64,000 bases of DNA from Deltaproteobacteria bacterium (GCA_016208255.1 JACQYK010000085.1:102996-166995); one strand, 5' to 3'; positions 127 to 64,000 are shown, counted from the stretch's first letter. Program-made: numbers and translations. Notes: generated by a model from the letters alone, not told the origin.

Positions 127-146
127 ATCGGGAAGGAGGATGTTCG

Positions 147-875
147 ATGAAGATTGATGAAAAGGAATGCGTGGGGTGCGGAGAGTGTTTGGCCTACTGC
201 CCTATGGGGGCCATCAGCATGGATGATGACGCTGATTTTGCCTCGATTGACGAGGATGAATGTGTGGAATGCGGCGTTTGTTTCCGATCGAAAGTCTGCC
301 CGGTTGACGCTTTTGAGGAGGAGATCCATCCCTGGCCCCGTTCCATTCGGGCGGCCTTTTCCAACCCCCTCCTGGTTCACAAAGAAACCCGGGTTCCGGG
401 GCGGGGAACCGAGGAGGCCAAGACCAATGACGTAACCGGGCAGTTTAGAAAAGGCTTCGTCGGCATCACCACCGAGATGGGCCGACCGGGCCTGGGAGCC
501 AGGTTTTATGATGTCGAAAAGGTGGCCAAAGCCCTGGCCAGGGCCGGGGTGGTCTTCGCGCCCAATAATCCGGTTACCTATTTGATGGTTGATCAGAAAA
601 CGGGCCAATTAAATCCGGAAATCATCAGCGAAAAGGTCTGTTCGGCCATGATCGAGAGCACCACACCCCTTGAAAATCTGCCAGAGGTGATCAAGCAACT
701 GAAAGGAGTTTCCCCTGAGATAGAGACCGTATTCTGTCTGACGATTTCCAGCCGGCTGGAAGAGGACGGCACGGCGCCCTGCGAGAAAGTATTGAAAGAG
801 CTGGAGGTGCTTTTTTATATCAATGGCAAGACCAATGTTGGCCTGGGCCGGCCCTTGTTTAAGGAGGTAGGATAA
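147..875 (+). CDS. 4Fe-4S dicluster ferredoxin-domain protein
   Basis: 242-aa ORF with a GGAAGGAGG SD upstream. Two CxxCxxCxxxCP-type motifs (CVGCGECLAYCP, CVECGVCFRSKVCP). The C-terminal ~170 aa are unassigned. Confidence 0.7.
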   Translation: MKIDEKECVGCGECLAYCPMGAISMDDDADFASIDEDECVECGVCFRSKVCPVDAFEEEIHPWPRSIRAAFSNPLLVHKETRVPGRGTEEAKTNDVTGQFRKGFVGITTEMGRPGLGARFYDVEKVAKALARAGVVFAPNNPVTYLMVDQKTGQLNPEIISEKVCSAMIESTTPLENLPEVIKQLKGVSPEIETVFCLTISSRLEEDGTAPCEKVLKELEVLFYINGKTNVGLGRPLFKEVG

Positions 876-49952: not shown

Positions 49953-50609
49953 TCAGCTGATATCGTAAATGGTTTTAAAAGCATAATACAATGATATAAA
50001 CCCAAACATTATTAAGCAAAGATTTGAAAGAAGAATCAGCCATTTTTTTAATGGATCGTTTATTTTCTTTTTTAATTTACTAACAATAAAAATAAGTGGA
50101 ACAAACCAAATAAACACTCCGACCATAATGAATGATACCGTTAAGATCCCATAATTTCTATAATTTGGAAAATTATGATTCCAAATTAAGAAGAAATTCC
50201 CGGCCACAACAATCCAACCCACTATGGTCAAAGGATTAGATAAGGTGATTACAATCCCGGAAATGAATGTGGCCAGAGGATTAGATTGAAACCCCGGTTT
50301 ATTTTCTTCGATCCCCTGGTTCTTTCTTATTGAATTTATCGATGACACTCCAAGAACGATCAAAATGATTCCGCAGACAACCCAAAGCGCGATTTTTAGA
50401 TATGGATTATTTGAAATGAGATTGGCCACCCCAAGATAAACCAGAGTGATATAAAAGATATCCGACAGACAGGATCCCAAAGTGAAAATGGCGCTGTTTC
50501 TAAATCCATATTGAAGCGCTCTTTGACAAGCTACAATAGTAACTGCGCCCGGAGGAACCGCAACAACGAACCCTAAAAAAACTGCTGATACTAAATATTC
50601 AAGTGGCAT
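49953..50609 (-). CDS. LysE/RhtB-type exporter-like membrane protein
   Basis: 218 aa with six hydrophobic segments and a ..VPPGAVTIV.. N-terminal motif. AT-rich codon usage. Confidence 0.5.
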   Translation of the reverse strand: MPLEYLVSAVFLGFVVAVPPGAVTIVACQRALQYGFRNSAIFTLGSCLSDIFYITLVYLGVANLISNNPYLKIALWVVCGIILIVLGVSSINSIRKNQGIEENKPGFQSNPLATFISGIVITLSNPLTIVGWIVVAGNFFLIWNHNFPNYRNYGILTVSFIMVGVFIWFVPLIFIVSKLKKKINDPLKKWLILLSNLCLIMFGFISLYYAFKTIYDIS

Positions 50610-50893: not shown

Positions 50894-51502
50894 TCATATC
50901 CATCCTTTTGTGTGTTTGGCATAGTTGTACTCGTCAATGAGCTTTAACAGAGTTTTCCCGCCGGATGAAGCCTGTGATCCAATCTGTTGGGCCAAGTTCT
51001 GCATCTTGTAGGAGAAGGAGAGATATTTGTCACAAGGGTGGGGGTTGTAATAAGAATCGTATGCCCGTGCTATCTTGTCGTCCCACAACGTGAAGAACGC
51101 TGGCCCGAGAAGGTGTAACGCCTTTGACACAGCAACAGGACTTTTCCTACCTTTCATCTTGCCGTCAGCAATTTGCAAGGCCTCAAGAAGCTCCTCGAAT
51201 AATTCCTTGATGACGGGCTCATCAGAGGTGCTAAGTGTCAAGATGTCTCTATCATGAAAACCTTCAATTGCAGTGAAGTTGGACTCAATAGTTCGTTCGA
51301 GTTTGTCGAAATCGAAGGGGCCATACCGATAGAAAGCTTGGTTCCATGTAAGAAGAAGGACTCCCATACCATCAGCCATGTCTGCTGGCTTGCCCCAAAA
51401 GTGATTGACAAGAAAGATGGCAGTTTTGTACATTGCATCCCTTCGTTCACGTCGTTGGAATTCCCCATACCCATTTACAAATTCATGAAGAGATATTGAC
51501 AT
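50894..51502 (-). CDS. Hypothetical protein (defence-island module 1, distal gene)
   Basis: 202 aa from the ATG at 51502 (GGAG 9 nt upstream). No recognised motif. Confidence 0.5.
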   Translation of the reverse strand: MSISLHEFVNGYGEFQRRERRDAMYKTAIFLVNHFWGKPADMADGMGVLLLTWNQAFYRYGPFDFDKLERTIESNFTAIEGFHDRDILTLSTSDEPVIKELFEELLEALQIADGKMKGRKSPVAVSKALHLLGPAFFTLWDDKIARAYDSYYNPHPCDKYLSFSYKMQNLAQQIGSQASSGGKTLLKLIDEYNYAKHTKGWI

Positions 51503-51773
51503 TCGATTCACTCCATAGGTCCAACATCTGCGTCAGCGGGAGACGGCAGTTTCGGCGATCCGCTACATGGGGCTAGCCGGTAATCCGCTCTGTATCAACA
51601 ATGAACTTACGGATTGCCTTGCCTGCTTCCGCGTCCAACCCAAACATCGTTTGCATAAACCTGTAGTCAACACCCGTGGCCCTCTTTATATCAGCAGCGA
51701 TCATCGGCGGGTCAATATTCCGGAAATCAGGAAGCTTCATGAAGTATTCTTCGTCAGGATGTTCAGGCTTGCC

Positions 51774-52583
51774 TTAGTATGGGGCCTTAACCAGCTTTCC
51801 ATTAGCTTTGCCCATTGCTACTATTCCCACCCTTGACTGATAAAGATACACGACGTCACCTTTTGCAAGGCGCTCAATCTTATATTTCCATGGGTCGAAA
51901 TAAGCAGCGGCCTTATGATTTGCGAGCATATCGCCGTGGTCTGTTTCGTCATTGCTGATGTTTGTATTGAGAATGTAGTAGCCCTCTGCAATGTCTTCAT
52001 ATGGGTTGTCCTCAACACGGAATGCCGACATTTCCAATAGGATTTCATTCGGTTGACCCTCGTAAACCCGGTAGACCCAAGGCCGAATATCAAGCCCACA
52101 GGATCGCCAGTATTGGATTGCCTCACGTGTTTTGTAGTCAAGACCGTTCGTCATCACAACAAACATTTGTTTTCCGTTGAATGCTTCTTCGTCGAGGTCC
52201 GTACCGAACTTGGCAGCGTGTGCAATCTTTAGTGACTGGGAAGGATCCGTCGCTTTCTTATACCAAGCGTCAAGATCGCCGTATTTGGAGGGGCCGTACA
52301 ACTGCGCGTAACGGAGCACCTGAAGAAGATTAGACGGATGCGATTCCCATGCCTTCAACTCAAATATGTAGAGGTAACCGTTTTTGTCCACTGCCATTAA
52401 GTCAGGCTCTTCCTGCCAGCGGCGAGACTGCATGAGAAGGATCAACTCATCATCGGGGAATAGCCGGTCCAAAGTCCTAAAAAGAATGTCCTGCAAACCA
52501 CGCTCGTCAAGACCCATTGCTTTTAGCTTTGATCCCGTTTTCTTTTGGGTTAAACGATTGCTCTTATCAATGCTCAGCAGCAT
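51774..52583 (-). CDS. PD-(D/E)XK nuclease-like protein with C-terminal PUA/EVE-like region (possibly truncated by TAA)
   Basis: ..EEPDLMAVDKNGYLYIFELKAWES.. (D-x14-ExK) preceded by ..GLDERGLQDILF... The C-terminal ..GDVVYLYQSRVGIVAMGKA.. resembles EVE/ASCH-type folds. SD AAGGAG upstream. Confidence 0.6.
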   Translation of the reverse strand: MLLSIDKSNRLTQKKTGSKLKAMGLDERGLQDILFRTLDRLFPDDELILLMQSRRWQEEPDLMAVDKNGYLYIFELKAWESHPSNLLQVLRYAQLYGPSKYGDLDAWYKKATDPSQSLKIAHAAKFGTDLDEEAFNGKQMFVVMTNGLDYKTREAIQYWRSCGLDIRPWVYRVYEGQPNEILLEMSAFRVEDNPYEDIAEGYYILNTNISNDETDHGDMLANHKAAAYFDPWKYKIERLAKGDVVYLYQSRVGIVAMGKANGKLVKAPY

Positions 52584-52594
52584 CTTTGCTCCTT

Positions 52595-52678
52595 AAGGCT
52601 AAAAAGTTATTCTATGGTTTCTGCAAAACTCCACAATCCGGGGATTTTCTTTAAGTTTCTATAAAATGACGATCCGGA
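52595..52678 (-). repeat. ~85-bp promoter-like repeat D1 (partner D2 at 55818-55900)
   Basis: The core gttattctatggtttctgcaaaactccaca matches D2 at 28/30. On the minus strand it reads TTGTGG-17-TAGAAT and ends at the SD of the 51774-52583 gene. Confidence 0.8.
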
Positions 52679-52895
52679 GAGAAATAAAGGACGTCCATGA
52701 AATAACAACCTCAGCCAAATAACATTTTAAGTCTCTAAATATCTTTCTGCGCTCAATCCCTCTCTCATGGTACAGTAATAAAGGAGACGTCCCCTTTATT
52801 ATTGTATTATTGAAGAACCAACGTTCTCACTTTTTTCATAAGCCCCAGACTGTAGCTGGTCGGGTGAATGACGATGTTGGGCAATATCCTGTCTA

Positions 52896-53759
52896 TTAAT
52901 TCTCCTCATCGTCATCTCGGTACTCTGCCAGATTTAAATATGAGTAATTTCGCTGATTAAGCAATAAATTTTGGAAGGCATCATGTGCATGTGACACGTT
53001 TGGATGATTTAACCAGCCATGAGCTAATTCTGGTTTTCCTTTAGCGAGTTCAGAATGCGACAATGCATGCATTGGTACAGGCCAAGTACCTCCTTTACCT
53101 GTTCGTACAAGATATTTAACGCTACTTGCAGTTCCCGAAAGCCAATCAAGGGTATGGATCCGCATGAACATTCTATGATCATGTGCCAAACGTCTAAGTT
53201 TTCTTTTTGTATCATTTGTAAGATGAGACCGCCTACCAATAAAAACGAACCCAAGAGGGTACTCAATCAGTGGCATTAGTTTTCGAACGTAGTTTAAATT
53301 TTCATGAATCCATGTGTGCCAATCCCGAACTTGTTGAATTGCATGGGTCAAATCTGATGTAGGATCTCCGGATTTGGTAAACAACTTTTTGGCGGGAGCT
53401 TCAATCTCTATTAAATACCACTCAGGTCCAAAGCTCCCTGTATCGAAACAGGCAAAATCAACTTCATACTCAGCCCCGAGTTTAACCTTAGAATAAATTG
53501 GCGACTCCCCATATAATCTTAGGATACCGTTGAAAAAATAGCTGTGTGAAGCAAGAAAATCGTGAACATTTTGCTCAGAGCTTTCATTGTCGAGAAGGCT
53601 TTGATATTCTTTTATGTCCTGATCAATTTTTTTTTCGGTGAGGGCTTTAACTAAAGGATCAATAAGTAATGGAGGTGGTTTCTCAAGTTCAATTTTCATT
53701 TTTTTGTCCCCCAGTGTCAGAAGTGAAATATTATTCGAAATCCAGTTCGTTGGATTCAT
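52896..53759 (-). CDS. Shedu-like nuclease (DUF4263/SduA-type PD-(D/E)XK domain)
   Basis: ..EQNVHDFLASHSYFF.., ..EYEVDFACFD..(n)..WYLIEIEAPAKKLFTK..(n)..LTHAIQQVRDW.. and ..FVFIGRRS.. are the typical DUF4263 order. Alternative start at 53699. Confidence 0.65.
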   Translation of the reverse strand: MNPTNWISNNISLLTLGDKKMKIELEKPPPLLIDPLVKALTEKKIDQDIKEYQSLLDNESSEQNVHDFLASHSYFFNGILRLYGESPIYSKVKLGAEYEVDFACFDTGSFGPEWYLIEIEAPAKKLFTKSGDPTSDLTHAIQQVRDWHTWIHENLNYVRKLMPLIEYPLGFVFIGRRSHLTNDTKRKLRRLAHDHRMFMRIHTLDWLSGTASSVKYLVRTGKGGTWPVPMHALSHSELAKGKPELAHGWLNHPNVSHAHDAFQNLLLNQRNYSYLNLAEYRDDDEEN

Positions 53760-53816
53760 TTCGCTCCATTCGGCATCACCGGGAGCCGGATTTATTGGCG
53801 CTCCGGTATGCCGTGG

Positions 53817-54394
53817 TTATGCAAGCTCTTTTGCATCTTCATAGAGAAGGAAGACTTCATGCCAATCCGGGAATCCCTTGAGGCGAAAAAGGCCTAACCG
53901 CCTTGAATTAAGACGATATCCCCGTCTTTTCAGGATTTCGTTAACGGGTTCGCTACATAGAATGTAGTCGCGCAGTGGTAGCTGATCTGGAGGCAGTGCA
54001 TCAATGGCTTCGTGCATGGACTCTCGGTTTATTGCTTCCAGTCTGAAAGTATAAGCGACATATGGGCCTTCCCTATCGTTCTCCACCACATCGACTTGCC
54101 CAAAATGAACAGCAATCCTGACGCTGATCGTCCGCTCCTCTCGTTTCCATATGCCAGAAGGTATCCGTCGCCCGTGCTTTTCGTGCACAGGAGATTGTGG
54201 TTAGCACCTATGTTCTGAACGGCCCTCCTTAGGTCGCGCATCAGCCCCCGGCCAACGGCGTACCAACCAAAAAGGTTGCTCGTGAGGGTCGATTCGACCA
54301 CATCCACCACGACTATCGCTTCTGAGGCAATAATAACCCCACCTTCCGATTTCCGTCCCGATTTCAGGATAAGTGATATGCTTCTCTCACTCAT
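53817..54394 (-). pseudogene. Stand-alone class III nucleotidyl cyclase-homology protein, reading frame broken near 54150
   Basis: ORF 54029-54394 carries ..VVVVDVVESTLTS.. and ..STGDGYLLAY... ORF 53817-54188, in another frame, carries ..VRIAVHFGQVDV.., ..YVAYTFRLEA.. and ..LFRLKGF... The linker between them is about 18 aa shorter than in the neighbouring cyclase. Confidence 0.55.
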
Positions 54395-55373
54395 CGCCGG
54401 ACCTCTTGCCCGATAGGCTCAGAACCGACACTTCCTGTTTTTGAGCTACACCTTTCAGACTAAGTTCTCTCTTGGAGAGAACACTTCCAAAGCGGTTTGT
54501 CGACAGAGAACTCATAGCAGTGCTAGAAAGGAGGATTTCGCCAAGACCAGCGGCGTCAGCAAGTCGCGCAGCAATCACAACCGCTTTTCCAAAAACGTCC
54601 TCGCCGTAGGGTGTGCGCCGAATTGAGACTGGCCCAAAGTGGATACCGAATCTGATCTGGATTGTAGGTGCCTTCGGAATTGCGTCGTCTAAACGTGTCT
54701 TGCCAAGGTCAAAGGCGAAGGCCACAGCGTCGTCCGAGGTACTGAAAACTGCCAAGAAACTATCGCCCAGAAACTTGAGCAAGTCTCCTTCGTGTTTTCT
54801 CACTATGCCGTCTACTCGGACAAAATAGTGTTTGAGAAACTGTCCGAAATCGAGTTCACCCAATGTCCGCATCATCGCCGACGAACCCACAATATCACCG
54901 AAAACGATAGCTGAGATCCGCTCTTGTGCAACACCAGGTTCTGCTTTCCGTTTTCCTCGCCTCTGGCCTTCCCGCTGTGGCAAAACATCCTTCAGCGCTC
55001 TTGATAACTCCTCTCTCAAGCCAATTTCCCCTCTACCAGAGAAGATTATTCGGTGTGCAGCTAGGTCGACCGGAACATCCTGAGGATTTTCGGCCAAAAG
55101 CAAGGTGTTCTTGCCCAAGGCGTGAGCATAGCCTAACTCATACCAGACGTTCGGGTTCGCCTGTGAGATGTCGGCGATAACCACGTCTGCCTTGGCTATC
55201 CTGAAATAAATCTCTTGGAGTATGCTCCCTGCGAATGCAAGCTCATCCGCGCGCTCGCAGACAGCACCCGCCGAATGGCAGGCTGGCTTGATTACGAGCT
55301 GATACTTCTCGTCACTTTTCCTTCCTAGTGGCATTGAAACAAAGACCGAGGGCATAGGTCGGGATGGTTTCAT
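54387..55373 (-). CDS. Fusion protein: nucleoside 2-deoxyribosyltransferase/TIR-like N-terminal domain + class III nucleotidyl cyclase domain
   Basis: N-terminus: ..VFVSMP..(n)..ADVVIADISQANPNVWYELGYAHALGKNTLLL... C-terminus: ..AIVFGDIVGSSAMM.., ..LKFLGDSFLAVF.., ..IRFGIHFGPV.., ..GKAVVIAARL... SD GAAGGAA upstream; 8-nt overlap with the next gene. Confidence 0.65.
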   Translation of the reverse strand: MKPSRPMPSVFVSMPLGRKSDEKYQLVIKPACHSAGAVCERADELAFAGSILQEIYFRIAKADVVIADISQANPNVWYELGYAHALGKNTLLLAENPQDVPVDLAAHRIIFSGRGEIGLREELSRALKDVLPQREGQRRGKRKAEPGVAQERISAIVFGDIVGSSAMMRTLGELDFGQFLKHYFVRVDGIVRKHEGDLLKFLGDSFLAVFSTSDDAVAFAFDLGKTRLDDAIPKAPTIQIRFGIHFGPVSIRRTPYGEDVFGKAVVIAARLADAAGLGEILLSSTAMSSLSTNRFGSVLSKRELSLKGVAQKQEVSVLSLSGKRSGDE

Positions 55374-55817
55374 TTCATCATTCCTTCATGTATAAAACTT
55401 AGGGGCTGGGCAATGATGACCGAAAGCCTATTCAAGAGGCAGTAAATATCGATAAAAATATGGCTTTCCGAAAGTGGCACGGCTTTGCCCGGTCCCTCTC
55501 CAGCGACAGGTTAGCTTTAGTCTTCTTCCAGATAGGTATCGCGTACCGAACCGAGTTTTGTTTGACCTTTGACAGAATTACCATCGCCATCGAACACCGT
55601 GACTTCAAAACCTGGGTAAGATTGAGCGAACCGTACCTTTTTCCATTCATTCACCGTCATGTCATTTTTTGCAGCCTTGTTGTAAGAATACTGCGGTATT
55701 CCTTCTTTATCGCCGTGGACGTCTTTGCCGTTTTGTAGAAACTTACGTCAAATCCTTCCGTGTCCCATATTTATTTCTCGACATTCTTTAGTTTCGGTAA
55801 TTTTTCTCTCCTTTTGA

Positions 55818-55900
55818 AAGCCAACAAGTTATTCTATAGTTTCTGCATAACTCCACAGCCAGGAAAATTTCTCTTTGCCTCTATAAAATGACAACCCGGA
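55818..55900 (-). repeat. ~85-bp promoter-like repeat D2
   Basis: gttattctatagtttctgcataactccaca..tctataaaatgacaacccgga, collinear with D1. It ends at an AAGGAGAG SD-like element. Confidence 0.8.
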
Positions 55901-55904
55901 CTGT

Positions 55905-56768
55905 CTATCCTGCCCGGGAATCCACATCATCATGATTTGTTTCCACACTAAACTGTTTATTAGAAAAGATTAGTGTGTCTACATCGGAGAAGAAGGAGAG
56001 CGCATTTTCGTCTGAAACAGTTGTGTCTCCAGGGTGAGCGCACGTATTTCTCAAAGTGAAACAAATTCCCAGGCGTTCATGCTGGTTTCCATCTATGACA
56101 CCCAAAAACTCAAGTATCCATAATAAGTCCCCATCAAATATGGACATTTGTAGCTCGCTTAAATTATGCACCTCAAATTTCTTATTAAAGCGTTTGTAAC
56201 GGCCAGTTTGTATAGCTGACATTTGCAGCGAAGCTTGATTGAATCTTGTAAAGCCCTCCTTTTGGATATACAAATGAAGGCGATTTATCGCTGCACACCA
56301 ACCCAAGATAATTGCAGCTCTGCGCTTACCGAGTCGGGCACAGTCAATAGCCTCAGTTAGATAATCGTTTTCAAGGCCAGTTGTATGGTTTAGAATTGTA
56401 TCGAGATTCGGGAATTTAGATAATATTCCTTGGTATTTCTGAACAGGCACCAGAAGGTTAATATGAAATGATCGTAAAATGGCATCGAAAATTGTCTGTA
56501 CGACTCTTTTGGAGGGTTTCCCCCCCGATAGTTCTAAGAGTTTTCCAAATTGTTCTCGATATATTAGAATAACATCCTCGTCCAGATTGAAAGAGGATCT
56601 TAGTAATGGCTCAAGATGTTCAAACCATTTCGTAGATAAGTTCTCGATTTGGTTTAGAAGTGTTCTGTTTTGTAATTGTTTCCCTGTTACTCTCTCTGAT
56701 TTTCTTAACGTAATTCCGCATTCTTTCTTAAACTCTTTAAGAACCGCTATAAAATTCTCTTTATCCAT
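55905..56768 (-). CDS. HEPN-like (Rx4H) Abi-type protein
   Basis: 287 aa. C-terminal ..FTLRNTCAHPGDTTVSDENALSFF.. (R-x4-H) preceded by an ..AAIILGWCAAINRLHLYI.. helix. AT-rich. Confidence 0.5.
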   Translation of the reverse strand: MDKENFIAVLKEFKKECGITLRKSERVTGKQLQNRTLLNQIENLSTKWFEHLEPLLRSSFNLDEDVILIYREQFGKLLELSGGKPSKRVVQTIFDAILRSFHINLLVPVQKYQGILSKFPNLDTILNHTTGLENDYLTEAIDCARLGKRRAAIILGWCAAINRLHLYIQKEGFTRFNQASLQMSAIQTGRYKRFNKKFEVHNLSELQMSIFDGDLLWILEFLGVIDGNQHERLGICFTLRNTCAHPGDTTVSDENALSFFSDVDTLIFSNKQFSVETNHDDVDSRAG

Positions 56769-56769
56769 T

Positions 56770-57354
56770 TTAGCTTTTCATTTCTTCTAATAAATCAGCG
56801 AGATCAGATTTACCATCCGGAGAAAGTATCAAAGGTTTGTCGCTTGATACTTCTTTAAAGAACTTTTCATTAAGTTTGAGATTCTTCATGAAATTAGGAC
56901 TGTCATAGCATTTATGTTCACCGCATTGCTTGCGTAATTCTTCTATGTCGACCTGAAACTGCCCAGTGGAAATGGCATTTTGCAGTGCCATTAAGAGAGC
57001 AAGAGAAATTTGAGCTTTCGCCTTTTTTGTTGTCTTTAAATTGTAAATTGGACGAATCTCCGTGCCTTCAATTAAAAACAATTTCCAAAGAAGTGAATCC
57101 TCAATGCCATATTGACTGAGAAATGCTTTTACATCCATTGGAAGTCTGAACTGTTTATGTTTAATTGGTGGCGTCTGGTGAGTTTGGTCATCAGTTGGTG
57201 GAGGCACCAGTTTATTAGTTGGCTCAGTTGCTTGCAAAGAATGTTGCAGCAAAAGTTCAAAACATTTTTGTCTAAATTCTTCTGGGACAGTTTTGCAAAG
57301 CTCAACAATTTTTTTCAACCCTTCGACTGTAATCATTGATCCATGTACCTCCAT
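56770..57354 (-). CDS. Hypothetical protein, tightly coupled upstream partner of the HEPN-like gene
   Basis: 194 aa. The TAA stop is 1 nt from the downstream ATG. The alternative ATG at 57336 follows GGAGGT. No recognised motif. Confidence 0.45.
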   Translation of the reverse strand: MEVHGSMITVEGLKKIVELCKTVPEEFRQKCFELLLQHSLQATEPTNKLVPPPTDDQTHQTPPIKHKQFRLPMDVKAFLSQYGIEDSLLWKLFLIEGTEIRPIYNLKTTKKAKAQISLALLMALQNAISTGQFQVDIEELRKQCGEHKCYDSPNFMKNLKLNEKFFKEVSSDKPLILSPDGKSDLADLLEEMKS

Positions 57355-57708: not shown

Positions 57709-58031
57709 ATGAATTATGCGATAGAATATTTCCATTCTCGTGTCAAAGCAGAGATCGAAAGATGGCCGGATGATTTATTGGCTGATTATGCGCGGATAGT
57801 GGAATTATTAATCGATTCGGGCCAAATTTGTGAATGCCGCACTCCCGGGCCCTGGGTGGCGGCCTTTTCGAGTTAAGGCCTCGATGGCGGGGGGGTATTG
57901 GACGGGCATTTTACTGTTTTATCATTGGTCAGCGTGTCGTGATCCTTCACGCCTTCTTAAAAAAAACACAAGATACTCCGGATCAAGAATTAAGAATTGC
58001 CCGGAGAAGAATGAAAGAGGTACAGAAATGA
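57709..58031 (+). pseudogene. higB: HigB/Gp49-family (RelE/ParE superfamily) toxin, frameshifted with an in-frame TGA
   Basis: N-terminal MNYAIEYFHSRVKAEIERWPDDLLADYARIVELL.. is in frame 1. The conserved ..GPNL-TGA-MPHSRALGGGLFELR..VILHAFLKKTQDTP.. is in frame 3. Confidence 0.6.
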
Positions 58032-58387
58032 AAGACTTAAAATATCAACCTGTTTCCCATGATCATACGTCCTTCCTAAAAGAAGCACTTAAGCGGAAAG
58101 GATTCAGGAGAGTCTACGAGGAATTGGAGGAAGAGTATGCCCTTACCCGGGAGATGCTTTCCGCACGCACCAGATTCGGCCTGACACAGGAAGCTGTTGC
58201 GGAGCTGATGGGAACGACCAAAAGTGCGATTTCACGTTTGGAAGCAGCTGACAAACATGCGCCATCCCTCACCACACTCAAGAAATATGCTCAGGCTGTC
58301 GGCTGTCGCCTTGAAATCAAGCTGGTTCCAAACTCCCCCTTAATCAAACGCAAAACGCGGACCGTAAAAAAACAGGCTATCGGTTAG
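58028..58387 (+). CDS. higA: HigA-type XRE-family antitoxin
   Basis: ..GLTQEAVAELMGTTKSAISRLEA.. HTH. ATGA overlap with the toxin stop. Confidence 0.75.
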   Translation: MKDLKYQPVSHDHTSFLKEALKRKGFRRVYEELEEEYALTREMLSARTRFGLTQEAVAELMGTTKSAISRLEAADKHAPSLTTLKKYAQAVGCRLEIKLVPNSPLIKRKTRTVKKQAIG

Positions 58388-58544: not shown

Positions 58545-61500
58545 TTATTTGATTTCGTATTCCTTTTGCAAAGCCGTAAAATAAAGGAAAAGACGGATGA
58601 GGGCCGGGTCGAGGGAACGGGCGTGGCCCAGCATTTCCCGGTAGGCCAGCAGTTGTTTCCGATATAAAACATCCTGCTCCTGTAAAAAGGTTTCCACCGC
58701 CATCCCTTCCGGCAGCGGGGTGGTTTTATAATCCACCACAAACCACTCCCGACCGTTAAAAACGATGCGGTCGATCACCCCGCTGCGCAGCGTGTGTTCA
58801 TCCACCTGATCTTCCAGGGCCCATTCGCAGGCGGAAAAAGGATGGTCTGTGCGGAGCATGGCGGCACAGAATGGTTCTTGTCGACAGGCCTCCACTTCCG
58901 CCAATATTTGGGGGGCCATTTCCTGGGCCGCTTCTTGAACTACGCCCTCGGCCGTCAGCGCCCGGACCACAGCCTTTCCCGTGGGAAGGCCCTTTCCCAT
59001 CCCCAGGTGTTCCAGTATTCGATGGATAACCGTGCCTCTGGCCATTCCATAAGGCCCTTTAAATTCTTCCTGCAGGAAAATGGCCGTCCGGTCCGCTTCC
59101 TCGGGAAACAGGTCCTCTTCCTGGAGTCCCGAAGGAAGGATCATTCGGTAGGGAACCGGTTCCGATTCAAAGGGCAGGGGGAGGATTTCTTCCATATTTA
59201 GCGGTGGGATGATTTCTTTTTGCTCCTCCGGCCCCAGGGGGTCATAATGGATTTCCAAAAATTTTTCTTTCCCGGGGTGGTTTAAGAGATACTCCAGCAG
59301 AGATTGTTTCGGGGCCTTTTCTTCCTCTTCCTTCCTGGAGTAAAGACCACTCAGGAAAAGGTTCTCTTTGGCCCTGGTCAGGGCCACATAATAAAGCCGC
59401 TTGGCCTCTCCCAGACCGCGTTCCTTTTTTAAGTCCTTCAACAATCCTAAAACTCCCGGATCATTTTGGGTCCGGCGATCCGGTTTCAAAGCGATCAGGT
59501 GTTCTTCCCTGTCTCCCGGCAACCGCTCTAAAAGATAGGGAAGATCCTCTCTTTGACTCCCTTCCAGGGGATTGCGGTCCAGGTGGGGGAGGAAGACGGT
59601 GTCAAATTCCAGGCCTTTGGCATGATGGACGGTCATAATCGCAACTTGGGAACGAGAGGCCAATGGGTCGGGCGGGGCATAGGCTGTAGCCAGAAGAAAT
59701 TCCAGGCTGGACAGGGTTTCTTCCGGCAGGCCTTTTTCGGCCAGAAATAGAAGCTGTAAAAATTGACGGCAGTTTCGAACCCCGGACAAACCGTAACGCT
59801 CAGCCACCGTCTTCGGGCCTGATAATTCTTCCCAGATTTTTTGCACCACCCGATGCAGGGGGAGACGGCCGACCTGGTTCTGATAACTTTCCAAAACCTG
59901 TCCCAGATTTTTCACCGACGGCTGGGCCTGGGGCATTTGAGAAAAGACCATGATTTTTTCGGCAAAGGAGGCCATTGGAATTTGCGAGATTTGAAGCAGA
60001 TCGTCCAATCCAATCCAACACCAGGCCGAACGGACCAATGAGGCCCAGGCCAGATCATCCTGGGGGCGAACCAAAGACCGGGTCAGGGAAAGGAGATCCT
60101 GAACCTCCGGCCGGGCCTCAAGATTAAGACCTTCCTGGACCTGGACCTGTATTCCCTGTTCATAAAGGGCCTTGAGGTAAAGGGGCAGATGGGTCCGGGC
60201 GAATAGGAGAATACCTATGGACCCGGAGCGGGGATCCTGGGAGGTCCGGCTTACCGCTCCGGCTAACCAGTCGGCTTCTTTGAGCCGAGACCCATGGGCA
60301 TCCTCTTCTTTACTAAAGAGGGCCAGCTTGATGGTCCCGGGGTCTCTGGTTAACATTTCCGGGGACGGTTGAGCTTTCAGGAAAGGGACCTCATCGGCTT
60401 CCAGGTTGGGCCGGGCCATAACAGTTTTGGAGAAAAGATCGTTGGTGAAATCGATCAGGTTTTTGCGAGACCGGAAATTGGTGCTGATATAAAGAGGTTT
60501 CAAAGGCAAGAGGCCCTGACCCGGCAGGGGAAGGCCGCTTCGGGCCTTCATGAAAAGGGAGACCTCGGCCTTGGGTTCCATCCGGCGCAGAGGTATTGGA
60601 TAAGCAGCCACTGGTTCAGACTGGTGTCCTGAAATTCATCCACCAGGATATGGTTGATTCGCTGGTCGAGAATGAGCTGCAGATCCGTGGGGGCTTCATC
60701 GCTGCCCAGGACCCGCAGGGCGGCCTGTTCCAGTTCGACAAAGTCGATGACCCCGCGAATCCGGCATAACCCGCGATAATGATCCACCACCTGATTGATC
60801 AGAAGGATCAAATCAAAAAGCAAACCCACGTCAACCGGTGATGTTTCCGGTAGAGGAAATGATTTGACCTTGTGCAGCCGTTCCAGGACCGGTTGAGTCA
60901 GAGATTCCAGATATTCCGCCCAGGGGGTGTTCTTAAATCCGGAATAAAAACCGATTTTCGGACCGAATTGTTTCCGGGCTGTGCCGCTTTTGGTAGTACA
61001 TATCTCGGCAATTCCCTGCCAGGCCGGAAGATCCGCCCAGCCGCACCCGGGTAAAAGACCGGGCATTTGCCCGGATACAGCCGCCCCCTTGAGGACCAGA
61101 TGATCATAGAAAAGGGCCCAGTGCCGCCCGAGGTCGGTGGATTCCAGGTGGGCCTTTAAGGCCTGCAGCTGAAGGCCGATTAAAAACCCTAAACGGTCTC
61201 TTAACAGCAGATCCAGATGAGCCGGGTCGGGTTGTCCCTTGACCACCTTCAACAGATCCGAAAGAAGGTCTCTTTGAGCGGTTAATTGAGCCAGATCGGA
61301 GGAAAGGGCCCGCCAGTCGTTATTGAAATAAAGCAGAATTCTTTCCAGCGCTTTTCGGTTGGGATCCGGGGGGGGTAAGGCCATCAGGATCTGCTGGGTG
61401 CGGCAGAGAGATTCCCGGATCAGTTCGTCCTGTTCCTCCTCGGTTAGGATGGCGGCTTCCAGAGGGCCCTGGGCCTCGACCGGGGCCTGTTTGATGATTT

Positions 61501-61873
61501 GATTGCAGAAGCTGTGAAAGGTCGTGATTTGTAGACCGTCGGAACCCAGGATAAGATGTTGGTGGGCCCTATGTTTTTTTAAGGCCTTTCTGGCGATGGT
61601 AAAGAGTTCATTCATCCAGGCCGAATCAGGAGCTGTCTCCTGCCTGGCCTGAAGAAGGAGGGTCTGGATCCTTTCCTGCATTTCATTGGCCGCTTTATTG
61701 GTAAAAGTCAAGGCCAGGATTTCCCGGGGATGGTTAACTTGAGCCAACAAGTGGATAAAACGGGCGGTCAACAAAGAAGTCTTCCCCGCCCCGGCCGGAG
61801 ATTCCACGTGGAAGCTTGCTTGAGGAGAGAGGGCGGCTTTTCGTATTTCAAGGTCTTTTAGTGTCTCAGACAT
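58545..61873 (-). pseudogene. addA: AddA-like UvrD/Rep helicase-nuclease, frame broken at about 60550-60610 with loss of helicase motif III region
   Basis: ESPAGAGKTSLL (motif I) and ILVDEFQDTS (motif II) are in the 60548-61879 ORF. ..STNFRS.., ..VHHAKGLEF.., ..YVALTRAK.. and the nuclease ..VIDRIVF..VVDYKT.. are in the 58545-60611 ORF. The expected VGD..QSIY.FR segment is absent. Confidence 0.7.
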
Positions 61874-61902
61874 TGTCAATCCATAACCCGAAAAATTTAT
61901 CC

Positions 61903-62005: not shown

Positions 62006-64000
62006 TCAGCTTTGAGCTGACTTCCAATAAGTGCACATATTTTTATAAGGACAATAAGTGCAGGCCCCTTGATTTTTCCCTTTGGGTTCCGGTCTGGGGT
62101 CGGGCGAGAAATCATTGGTCTTTAATCTTTCCCCGATCCGCCCGATTTCATTTTCCCAATCCGGCAAACAAACCTCCCAGCCCGAGGCCTCCGGCCAGAG
62201 GTCCTTCATAACCACTTCTCCTTCTGATTTGAGACCGATATATCCGGCCCTGGAGCCCACCAGGGTTTTTTTCTGCAATTCGTTTATGGTTTTTAAAGCC
62301 AGGAGGTAGAGGGGTAACTGGGGGGCCAGGAACTTTTTATTAATGTCGCTGGAAGAGGGGAGAGTGCCTGTTTTGTAATCCCAACAACAGACTTCCCCCA
62401 GGGATTCGTTAAGGTCGAGGCGGTCAATACGGCCTTGTACGGAAAACGACCAGGATGGAAAATGGAGATCAAAAAAAGACATCTCCTCCTTCTCCCAGCG
62501 CCAGCCTTTTTCCCAATGTTCCTTTTCCGTTTCCAGCCAGATGCGCAAGAGCCCACTTAGAGTTTCCCCCTCACCGATCAGACGCGCTTTTTCCACGAGC
62601 CAGTGAGGATTGGAGGATTTATCGCTGAGCGACTCATCAACACACCGGGTAATCACGGGTTCAACCGCTTTTGGATCGGTAAGTGGAATTCCCCGGGAGC
62701 GCAAGGTCTTGGTTATCAAGGCCAGAATTTTATGCAAGGTCTCCCCCTTTTCCAGAGGAGAAATCCCGACGATGATTTCATCCAGGGGAGAAATTCGCAG
62801 CAAGCGCTCGACAAAAAATTTAAAGGGACAGGCCAGAAGGGTTTCCACTGCGGTCACGGAAAGATTTGAGACCTGGGGGGGTATTTCAAACCCGAGGGAC
62901 CGGGAGGGAAAGGAATCCCGATCAGTTTCCGAAGTCGGGGGATTCCCCGGAACCGGAGCCGGGGAAATATCCAAGGGTTGATGGGCCAGGGGATAATTTT
63001 GTATCCCCTGAAGGGTTTGTTTAAGCCATTCGGCCCGGGCCCAGACCTTCCCCGGGACCGCCCAGTAGTTTTGCTCCCCTTTTTCAGCCTGGGAGGGCCA
63101 AAAAGGAGAAGGAGGAACCGGGTCTCCCCTTTCTTCTTCCGGCCGGGTCAGCGCAATTTTGGGAGAAACGGTTTTGAGATGAGAGAAAGAAACCCGGGCA
63201 AAATCAAACTGGCTTTTTAAAGTCGCCCCTTGAACCAGCTGCCGTTCTTCAGGGCCCAGAAAGGGAAAGGTTCGGACCGGCTGCGGCAGGCTGCTTTTGG
63301 ATAGGCCGGCCAGAAAGAGGTGATCAAAAGCCAGTCCTCTGGACTCGATCAGACCCAGGACCTGGATGCCGGATTGTTCGTAACCGGGTTCATTAACCAG
63401 GGTTTGACTGAGCAGGTATTTCAACCAGGCAAAAAAATGAGGTCCGTCCAGATCTTCGGTTTCTAAATCCCGGCTTAAATCCAGCAGGATTTGCCTAAGG
63501 TGTTTGTAGATGCCTTCCTCGCCCGGCAGGGCTATGGCCGGAAAGCCGAGTAGTCGCCAGCAATGCAACAGCGATTCCACCCAACGGGCCAGGCCTTGGC
63601 CTGGTTGATTGAAGGTTTTTAACAGGGAGGCCAGGGTTTCTTCCGGGGGGTCCAAATAGGATAAGCCGGAAAATTTTTGATGTTTAAGACCGTTAAGAAG
63701 GGTTTCCAGACCAAAATCCAGGGAATGCTTACGCCAGATCAAGTCCGCCTGGGCCAGTTGAGGGTGATGGCCCCTCCAAATTCGATAATAGGGGGAGAGG
63801 AGCAGGGAGAGGAACAAGGCCCGCGTTTCCCCTTCCAGGAAAAAACGCAAAGGCAGGATGCCGGCCTGGATCAAAGGTTGTTCCCATAATGACTGCCCCA
63901 GAGAAATGTTGTAACTTCCTGCTTCCTCGAATATTGAAGGACCGATCAACTCCCGGAAGGCGGAAGAGATTAAAGGGGTATATTGGGAGAGATTAGGCAC
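62006..64000 (-). CDS. addB: AddB-like PD-(D/E)XK nuclease subunit with C-terminal Fe-S Cys motif; N-terminus outside window
   Basis: ..GRIDRLDL..CCWDYKTG.. nuclease motif and ..CTYCPYKNMC.. at the C-terminus. The ORF is open to the window edge. Confidence 0.7.
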   Translation of the reverse strand: MPNLSQYTPLISSAFRELIGPSIFEEAGSYNISLGQSLWEQPLIQAGILPLRFFLEGETRALFLSLLLSPYYRIWRGHHPQLAQADLIWRKHSLDFGLETLLNGLKHQKFSGLSYLDPPEETLASLLKTFNQPGQGLARWVESLLHCWRLLGFPAIALPGEEGIYKHLRQILLDLSRDLETEDLDGPHFFAWLKYLLSQTLVNEPGYEQSGIQVLGLIESRGLAFDHLFLAGLSKSSLPQPVRTFPFLGPEERQLVQGATLKSQFDFARVSFSHLKTVSPKIALTRPEEERGDPVPPSPFWPSQAEKGEQNYWAVPGKVWARAEWLKQTLQGIQNYPLAHQPLDISPAPVPGNPPTSETDRDSFPSRSLGFEIPPQVSNLSVTAVETLLACPFKFFVERLLRISPLDEIIVGISPLEKGETLHKILALITKTLRSRGIPLTDPKAVEPVITRCVDESLSDKSSNPHWLVEKARLIGEGETLSGLLRIWLETEKEHWEKGWRWEKEEMSFFDLHFPSWSFSVQGRIDRLDLNESLGEVCCWDYKTGTLPSSSDINKKFLAPQLPLYLLALKTINELQKKTLVGSRAGYIGLKSEGEVVMKDLWPEASGWEVCLPDWENEIGRIGERLKTNDFSPDPRPEPKGKNQGACTYCPYKNMCTYWKSAQS

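Follow-up and report, generated by a model that had tools for sequence, protein, structure and literature searches.

A probably decayed copy of a candidate two-cyclase defense module, its first cyclase fused to an NDT/TIR-like domain, beside a Type 2 Shedu gene in a deltaproteobacterial defense island

We examined a set of adjacent genes in a Deltaproteobacteria bacterium (GCA_016208255.1 JACQYK010000085.1:102996-166995). The window is the whole stretch of 64,000 nucleotides (nt) that was analyzed, and all coordinates are positions within it. Two overlapping genes with class III nucleotide cyclase homology, here called cyc1 and cyc2, are followed by a gene for a Shedu-type nuclease, SduA; the N-terminal half of cyc1 resembles nucleoside 2-deoxyribosyltransferases (NDT) and TIR-like domains. 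A preliminary description of this DNA had presented the three genes as one working nucleotide-signaling string. We found the cyclase pair to be conserved across genomes and disrupted in the window, with SduA as its neighbor. The genes and features are as follows.

54387-55373, minus strand: cyc1 (328 residues), an NDT/TIR-like domain of the N-glycosidase type fused to a class III cyclase homology domain
54969-55373, minus strand: NDT/TIR-like domain of cyc1, residues ~1-135
Residues ~136-149, minus strand: linker of cyc1
~54390-54926, minus strand: class III cyclase homology domain of cyc1, residues ~150-320
53817-54394, minus strand: cyc2 pseudogene, a second cyclase-homology gene disrupted by an out-of-frame 94-nt deletion
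54139-54142, minus strand: deletion junction in cyc2, where 94 nt of the relative L176 are missing, with AGA microhomology
53771-53813, minus strand: imperfect hairpin directly 3' of the cyc2 stop, kept in the relative L176
52896-53759, minus strand: SduA, a 287-residue DUF4263-only (Type 2-like) Shedu nuclease, 39% GC

This layout agrees with the preliminary description, which had a second cyclase-homology gene overlapping the first by 8 nt (54387-54394) and a DUF4263/SduA-type nuclease gene starting 57 nt beyond the cyc2 stop. The identity of the nuclease was borne out by Pfam SduA_C (2.8e-13; 50.8 bits, cut-off 27 bits) and by nine PADLOC SduA models (best match, 1e-30), with DUF4263 spanning residues 44-218 of the 287.

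In the cyclase half of cyc1, residues 155-312 matched Pfam Guanylate_cyc (E = 3.2e-15, 56.6 bits). The best NCBIfam match was the cyclase part of LipJ (2e-18, 66.4 bits), and the best PDB sequence matches were Rv1900c (1e-17) and Ma1120 (3e-16). PADLOC models of PycC matched this domain weakly (5.9e-9 to 1.2e-3, at most 33.7 bits), and PDB entry 7r65, deposited as 'Adenylate/guanylate cyclase' and presumably a Pycsar cyclase, matched at E = 0.33 only. The predicted model of the fusion (predicted local distance difference test score [pLDDT], 85.7) had the cyclase domains of Rv1900c and Ma1120 as its top Foldseek matches in the PDB (target TM-score 0.84-0.89; Rv1900c, the top match, 0.87). Both metal-binding aspartates named in the preliminary description, D160 and D204, are kept and are invariant across the fusion family; K200 and D259, which align with K and D in Ma1120, form an adenine-type specificity pair, and R270 is kept at the position of the transition-state arginine. 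Across 19 cyc1-family sequences, the lysine, D204 and D259 were present in 19 of 19, D160 was missing only in a 168-residue fragment (P0138), and the R241 and R270 positions were absent in one and two bare-cyc1 sequences, respectively. The domain shares with Rv1900c and Ma1120 the fold, the metal Asp pair, the K/D pair and the arginine, and also the lack of the motif asparagine discussed below. The K/D pair suggests a purine cyclic nucleoside monophosphate (cNMP) as product.

The N-terminal domain of cyc1 had been described as NDT/TIR-like and fused to a class III cyclase, and three comparisons bear this out. Residues 50-100 matched Pfam Nuc_deoxyrib_tr (PF05014; E = 2.1e-5), residues 49-106 matched the PADLOC model 'Effector TIR' (PDLC00733; 1.5e-9), and the PDB sequence of Rcl/DNPH1, a 2'-deoxynucleoside 5'-phosphate N-hydrolase, aligned with the domain at E = 2.7e-4, matching the motif ADVV.A....Q.....V.YELG.A.ALGK. 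E79 of cyc1 lies in NPNVWYELG, whose YELG aligned residue for residue with that of Rcl/DNPH1; the glutamate of this motif is the catalytic nucleophile in NDT and DNPH1. The predicted model of the domain has a Rossmann-like order of elements (beta-alpha-beta-alpha-beta-alpha-beta-beta-alpha), with high pLDDT over residues 9-130. The domain constitutes a large family of its own with an NPNVxYELG signature. Species genomes and metagenomes each have more than 500 loci that encode it, and when 1.84 billion representatives were scanned in full with HMMER, 462 matched at E <= 1e-30. In 143 diverse proteins carrying it, the Glu and Gly of YELG were invariant and NPNV nearly so. We ran Pfam and PADLOC on 10 cluster representatives of these 143 proteins: the domain was fused elsewhere to SIR2_2 plus DUF4145, to TPR-S and to a TIR domain, several representatives had no further Pfam domain, and the 'Effector TIR' model matched 10 of 10. 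Because of these fusion partners and the conserved catalytic-type Glu, the comparison points to a putative NAD+/nucleotide N-glycosidase effector and not to a passive sensor.

Full-length fusions of the NDT-like domain to a cyclase are very rare. A word-indexed search found 6 proteins, and an exhaustive scan of the same 1.84 billion representatives found ~6 clusters when sequences were grouped at 50% identity. In 185,579 species genomes, the best 80 matches were to the N-terminal domain only, and the cyclase half was covered by none of them.

The second cyclase gene is broken in the window into two open reading frames (ORFs), 54029-54394 and 53817-54188, which do not share a frame. Intact cyc2 relatives have 223 residues, and the window copy is short by 32 alignment columns. 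The frame break and shortened linker that had been noted near 54150 trace to one event: in a pairwise DNA alignment with L176, a metagenomic relative that is ~96% identical to the window at the DNA level and carries an intact cyc2 (P0019), the window showed one clean 94-nt gap, at 54142|54141. Since 94 = 3 x 31 + 1, a single deletion accounts for both the short linker and the broken frame. The segment lost corresponds to a long helix, residues 88-111, in the P0019 model. This AlphaFold model (pLDDT 89.4; predicted TM-score, 0.85) matched Ma1120 in Foldseek with a TM-score of 0.86-0.89, and P0019 scored 23.8 bits with the Pfam cyclase family, above the cut-off of 21.9 bits. The word-indexed search gave 296 matches to cyc2; the 120 listed all had E <= 2e-70 and, the query itself aside, shared 47-70% identity with it. 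In an alignment of 101 sequences, mean column identity was 58%, D31, D76 and R149 were invariant, D138 was invariant or nearly so, and the consensus at position 72 was Lys. No PADLOC model matched cyc2. These results indicate that the cyclase homology domains of cyc1 and cyc2 are truly of class III and that the module is most likely dead in the window genome, its cyc2 destroyed by the 94-nt deletion.

The preliminary description had suggested that the adjacent cyclase genes belong together, and the comparison of genomes upheld this. The order cyc1 then cyc2, on the same strand, recurred in 13 contexts besides the window (L001/L085, L084, L002, L003, L164-166, L167, L168, L169-171, L172/173, L174/175, L176/177, L178 and Logan ERR12035939), and every cyc2 context retrieved had a cyclase-domain gene directly upstream on the same strand. 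The distance between the two genes went from an 8-nt overlap (in L002, <=32 nt by the gene call) to a gap of 75 nt, and we regard cyc2 as coupled to cyc1 in translation. The N terminus of cyc1 varied among these contexts: it was NDT-like in eight (the window, L176/177, L178, L003, L001/L085, L084, L002 and L164-166), a TIR_2 domain in three (L169-171, L172/173 and Logan ERR12035939) and absent in three, where cyc1 is a bare cyclase of 190-230 residues (L167, L168 and L174/175). The TIR of the TIR-cyc1 forms matched PADLOC 'TIR-TM' at 2e-46, and further TIR_2 forms occurred among the homologues (P0140 and P0142). Because the pairing is constant while the cyc1 N terminus varies, the conserved unit is cyc1 plus cyc2, and the TIR-type N-terminal domain on cyc1 is optional and exchangeable.

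Several of these loci have additional features. After TIR-cyc1 and cyc2, L172 (6782-7426) and L173 (3324-3968) carry a third, weakly cyclase-like gene of 214 residues, which matched Pfam Guanylate_cyc at 3.9e-4, below the cut-off. Stand-alone NDT/TIR-like proteins adjoin NDT-cyc1 and cyc2 in three contexts independent of one another, L001 (4100-4837), L002 (3105-4217) and L164 (5769-6983); one is an AbiJ_NTD5-NDT protein of 245 residues, and the others have 370 and 404 residues. A tblastn search of the window found no such second NDT-like protein. The cyc2 of L002 has a C-terminal extension of 240 residues. The TIR-cyc1 and cyc2 pair of L169-L171 and the bare pair of L167 occupy the same site beside ThiC in different metagenomic genomes, which suggests that this site is an integration hotspot.

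The third gene of the window behaved differently from the pair. A tblastn search of 175 loci found no SduA homologue, L176-L178 had no called DUF4263 gene, and among the contexts compared DUF4263 adjoins cyc1-cyc2 in the window only. The homology between the window and L176 runs through cyc2 and the hairpin and ends at 53767, 7 nt short of the SduA ATG; the slot after cyc2 is occupied in L176 by bSEFIR (PADLOC, 1.3e-66; Pfam TIR_2 and SEFIR). GC content steps down at the same border, from 51.6% in cyc1 and 50.3% in cyc2 to 39.1% in SduA, and in L176 from about 52.5% in the pair to 38.8% in bSEFIR. Thus, of the co-occurrence at first supposed for the whole string, the second cyclase held in all 13 further contexts and the nuclease in none, and DUF4263 has to be dropped from the cyclase string: SduA is a neighbor of the cyclase pair, not a conserved partner. 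The Shedu and bSEFIR genes offer a clean example of single-gene systems exchanged at one defense-island slot.

SduA is a further member of a known Shedu type. In a published survey, Type 2 Shedu (DUF4263-only) made up 2,286 of 7,687 proteins and was presented as a stand-alone class, probably with constitutive activity, and the survey named restriction-modification, BREX, transposons and prophages as associated, with cyclases unmentioned (bioRxiv 10.1101/2023.08.10.552793). This accords with the single-gene status that the preliminary description had given to Shedu. The window protein is DUF4263-only, lies in a defense island and is similar in length to short SduA proteins encoded by plasmids of Rhodococcus and Leptospira (254 and 274 residues, 27-40% identity), for which no cyclase is annotated in the 3 kb to either side. 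D101, E118, E120 and K129 are common to the window SduA and these two relatives (three sequences). The window motif is E-x-E with a downstream Lys, which differs from the E-x-K of Bacillus cereus Shedu. A phmmer search of the PDB with SduA returned no Shedu chain. In short, the Shedu gene of the window is ordinary, and the cyclase module there is decayed.

The hairpin between cyc2 and SduA had been noted earlier as a possible separator of transcripts. Its existence was confirmed (dG of -27.2 kcal/mol; z of -4.2; 0 of 200 shuffles fold as well), and the proposed separation was not, as the hairpin has no T-tract and a scan turned up nothing terminator-like between cyc2 and SduA. The hairpin marks the end of the cyc1-cyc2 cassette common to the window and L176 (L176 1541-1616), and its border looks like a precise cassette-exchange point. 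The Shedu and bSEFIR genes start 7-26 nt past it, each with a ribosome-binding site only. A canonical intrinsic terminator was ruled out by the missing T-tract; a repetitive extragenic palindromic (REP) or attC-type repeat was also considered and dropped, as no other convincing copy was found in the window or the loci. An Rfam scan of the window gave no match.

We then considered the surroundings of the pair. In the window, the cyclase pair lies in a defense island between LysE and AddAB-like genes, with Shedu, PDC-S11 and a HigBA-like pair nearby. The neighboring features are as follows.

49953-50609: LysE, one boundary of the island
51774-52583, minus strand: PDC-S11 candidate downstream of SduA (PADLOC, 2e-19; faint NucS-like NCBIfam match)
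55905-57354, minus strand: two adjacent low-GC genes (37-39% GC; 287 and 194 residues) directly upstream of the cyclase pair
From 58545: AddAB-like genes, the other boundary of the island

Elsewhere, the pair is accompanied by bSEFIR in L176 and PDC-S02 in L003 (both by PADLOC), by a DUF4145 protein in L084, and in L169 (L169-171) by a Bpu10I-type restriction-modification pair that adjoins TIR-cyc1 and cyc2.

Comparison with known systems places the module close to, and outside, several of them. Pycsar, as outlined in one published account, consists of a cyclase together with a receptor for cyclic pyrimidines (PMC11224242). The module resembles Pycsar in its class III-type nucleotide cyclase and in an N-terminal domain that resembles a TIR-type effector model placed by PADLOC beside its PycC models. 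It differs in having two cyclase subunits instead of one, an effector-type domain fused to the cyclase instead of to a cNMP-binding receptor, cyclase domains nearer to canonical adenylyl cyclases with a purine-type K/D pair, and a cyc2 without a PADLOC model. The eight genes between 50894 and 57354 yielded no cNMP-binding family, as had been observed for the window earlier, and neither did the called genes of the related loci. The cyc1-cyc2 module is most probably not a member of Pycsar. Classical heterodimeric class III cyclases, exemplified by the C1/C2 domains of mammalian adenylyl cyclase and by soluble guanylyl cyclase alpha/beta, have one degenerate site. The pair is like them in that two different cyclase-homology polypeptides are encoded together, and unlike them in that cyc1 and cyc2 both keep the full residue set, the subunits are small and come from one operon of two genes, and a TIR or NDT-like domain is often attached to the first.

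The N-terminal domain itself resembles NDT/DNPH1 in the Rossmann-like beta-alpha order of its model and in the Rcl/DNPH1 motif, and it resembles the TIR-like effectors of CBASS and Pycsar in that 'Effector TIR' matched every member examined; it differs from NDT in falling under the Pfam gathering threshold, as a family of its own. Abortive-infection systems based on cyclases or TIR domains are closest in proposed working, but the layout here is new. Checked against the known systems in PADLOC, SduA is Shedu, the cyc1 N-terminal domain is an 'Effector TIR' match, PycC matches are weak, and cyc2 has no model. No description of the cyc1-cyc2 pair was found in PADLOC or in a literature search for which most subscription papers lay outside reach. 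The earlier remark that no described system of this kind was known accords with this: the pair is apparently undescribed, and rare as an NDT fusion.

Considering the locus as a whole, we lean, by a modest degree, toward reading it as a decayed copy of a candidate heterodimeric-cyclase defense module with a built-in N-glycosidase effector, lying beside an autonomous Type 2 Shedu gene in a defense island. This leaning applies to the entire picture, and we rate the biochemical steps within it lower. From the invariant pairing, we infer that cyc1 and cyc2 would form a heterodimeric cyclase, and because the cyc1 N terminus is swappable (none, TIR_2 or NDT-like), a TIR or NDT-like domain in that position may serve as a built-in effector that cleaves NAD+ or nucleotides. 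An infection cue would switch the cyclase dimer, which would probably make a purine cNMP; the switched dimer would then license the N-glycosidase domain, leading to NAD+ or nucleotide depletion and so to a defense of the abortive-infection type. What the analysis itself shows are the domains and folds, the conserved residues, the gene pairing, the exchangeable domains and slot, the neighborhoods and the deletion; the complex, its trigger and product, the defense phenotype and the order of events are deduced from these.

A number of observations weigh against this reading. Both subunits have a full catalytic set, which makes homodimers equally possible. Bare cyc1-cyc2 pairs have no effector domain, and some lie amid housekeeping genes (L167, L168 and L174), so the pair may not be a defense system or may signal elsewhere. 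The defense genes adjoining the pair are a descriptive count over 14 contexts. The PF05014 match of the cyc1 N-terminal domain scored 25.1 bits, below the curated cut-off of 28.8 bits, and Foldseek with the whole fusion returned only cyclases among the 50 matches listed, that is, none for this domain. Where the cyclase motif normally has asparagine, the window cyc1 has V266, NDT-fused cyc1 proteins have V, I or L, and cyc2 has S or A. This replacement had been raised as a caveat from the outset; the replacement is real, but as an objection it is probably weak, because the adenylyl cyclases Ma1120 (Ala) and Rv1900c (His), both solved structures, likewise have no Asn at that column. Two further frame-broken genes within 8 kb make the quality of the assembly doubtful. 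Lastly, SduA has a ribosome-binding site upstream and no promoter-like or terminator-like site; given this, and the cassette border just before the ribosome-binding site, SduA is probably cotranscribed with the cyclases, to judge by sequence signals, which leaves room for coupling.

Such coupling is the core of a different explanation, that all three genes constitute one signaling system in which a cyclic nucleotide from the cyclase pair activates DUF4263 and the third gene is a swappable effector (Shedu, bSEFIR, a membrane protein or an NDT-like protein). The three genes do share a strand, the 57-nt gap between cyc2 and SduA holds no terminator- or promoter-like site, the border 7 nt before the ATG means that SduA probably relies on an upstream transcript, and an effector-like, codirectional third gene occurs in four NDT-cyc1 contexts (SduA; bSEFIR; a 160-residue protein with multiple transmembrane [TM] segments in L001; an NDT-like and then a TM protein in L002). 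Yet DUF4263 stands beside the pair in the window only, Shedu and bSEFIR are known as single-gene systems, and DUF4263 fills so much of SduA (44-218 of 287) that a nucleotide-sensing domain would not fit. A third gene is often missing beside TIR-cyc1 and bare cyc1 pairs, the genes downstream are on the opposite strand or encode transposases in L003, L164 and L178, and in the window as in L176 there is a GC step of 11-13 points between the pair and the third gene. We consider this explanation quite unlikely, and a working three-gene string in the window is contradicted by the deletion that inactivates cyc2. Also unlikely, in our view, is that the pair is an ordinary heterodimer for cyclic AMP (cAMP) signaling, its NDT-like or TIR domain a regulatory nucleotide-binding input and its place in a defense island a coincidence. 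The canonical cyclase residues with their K/D adenine pair would fit, as would best matches by sequence and fold to mycobacterial adenylyl cyclases and not to Pycsar cyclases, and bare pairs amid ThiC, glycosidase, Rho and heme biosynthesis genes. A signaling input is harder to square with a TIR_2 fusion in three contexts that matches PADLOC 'TIR-TM' at 2e-46, with the invariant catalytic-type Glu kept in the NDT-like fusions, with the known or candidate defense genes that adjoin many copies, and with flanks that differ among close relatives and a gene that is decaying in the window.

A Pycsar variant, that is, a pyrimidine cyclase with a TIR-type effector fused in cis, could be argued from the PycC matches on the cyclase domain (5.9e-9 to 1.2e-3) and the PDLC00733 match on the N-terminal domain, but the cyclase domain is far better described by Pfam (56.6 bits) and LipJ (66.4 bits) than by PycC (33.7 bits), 7r65, presumably from Pycsar, reached E = 0.33 only, the K/D pair predicts a purine substrate, no cNMP-binding receptor gene was found among the eight genes (50894-57354), and the second cyclase subunit that defines the module has no PADLOC match; we regard this variant as highly improbable. 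The break in cyc2 might, finally, be an assembly or sequencing artifact, with the module intact in the organism. The frameshift splits in the Gp49/HigB-like toxin gene and the AddA/UvrD-like gene, both within 8 kb, point to an indel-prone assembly, but homopolymer indel errors do not resemble this lesion, which is one clean gap of 94 nt, with 3 nt of microhomology, in DNA that is ~96% identical elsewhere, and we think it improbable that the break is artificial.

We put forward only tentatively, as a possibility that we still doubt, that the pair represents a widespread system against phages that has so far gone undescribed. It would be the counterpart of Pycsar for purine cNMPs, with a heterodimeric class III cyclase joined in cis to interchangeable NADase or N-glycosidase domains of the TIR or NDT-like kind, perhaps with trans effectors (Shedu, bSEFIR or small membrane proteins) in some lineages. 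If the pair is indeed a defense module, it would add a new architecture to nucleotide-based immunity, with two cyclase subunits, an effector fused to the signal-making enzyme and no separate receptor, and it would raise the question of whether the cyclase domain is a signal generator, a switch or a nucleoside triphosphate sink. The cyc2 family is large enough for study (~300 matches), and intact close relatives of the disrupted copy exist.

Among the minor observations from the window, the 287- and 194-residue proteins encoded at 55905-57354 received no Pfam, PADLOC or NCBIfam assignment; the 287-residue protein has an R-x4-H motif, RNTCAHPG, that by eye is reminiscent of HEPN domains. A frameshift breaks the Gp49/HigB-like toxin gene, on the plus strand, into two ORFs (57709-57876 and 57834-58031); the second matches positions 30-90 of 90 in Pfam Gp49, and an HTH_3 antitoxin-like ORF lies 3' of it, ending at 58387 (plus strand). 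The gene for the AddA/UvrD-type helicase-nuclease (58545-61879, minus strand) is split into two overlapping ORFs, a UvrD-helicase N-terminal part (60548-61879) and a part with UvrD_C and PDDEXK_1 (58545-60611). Counting cyc2, three genes are disrupted in 8 kb, which reflects either gene decay or an indel-prone assembly. An AddB-like PDDEXK_1 protein is encoded at 62006-64000 (minus strand), upstream of the AddA/UvrD-like gene.

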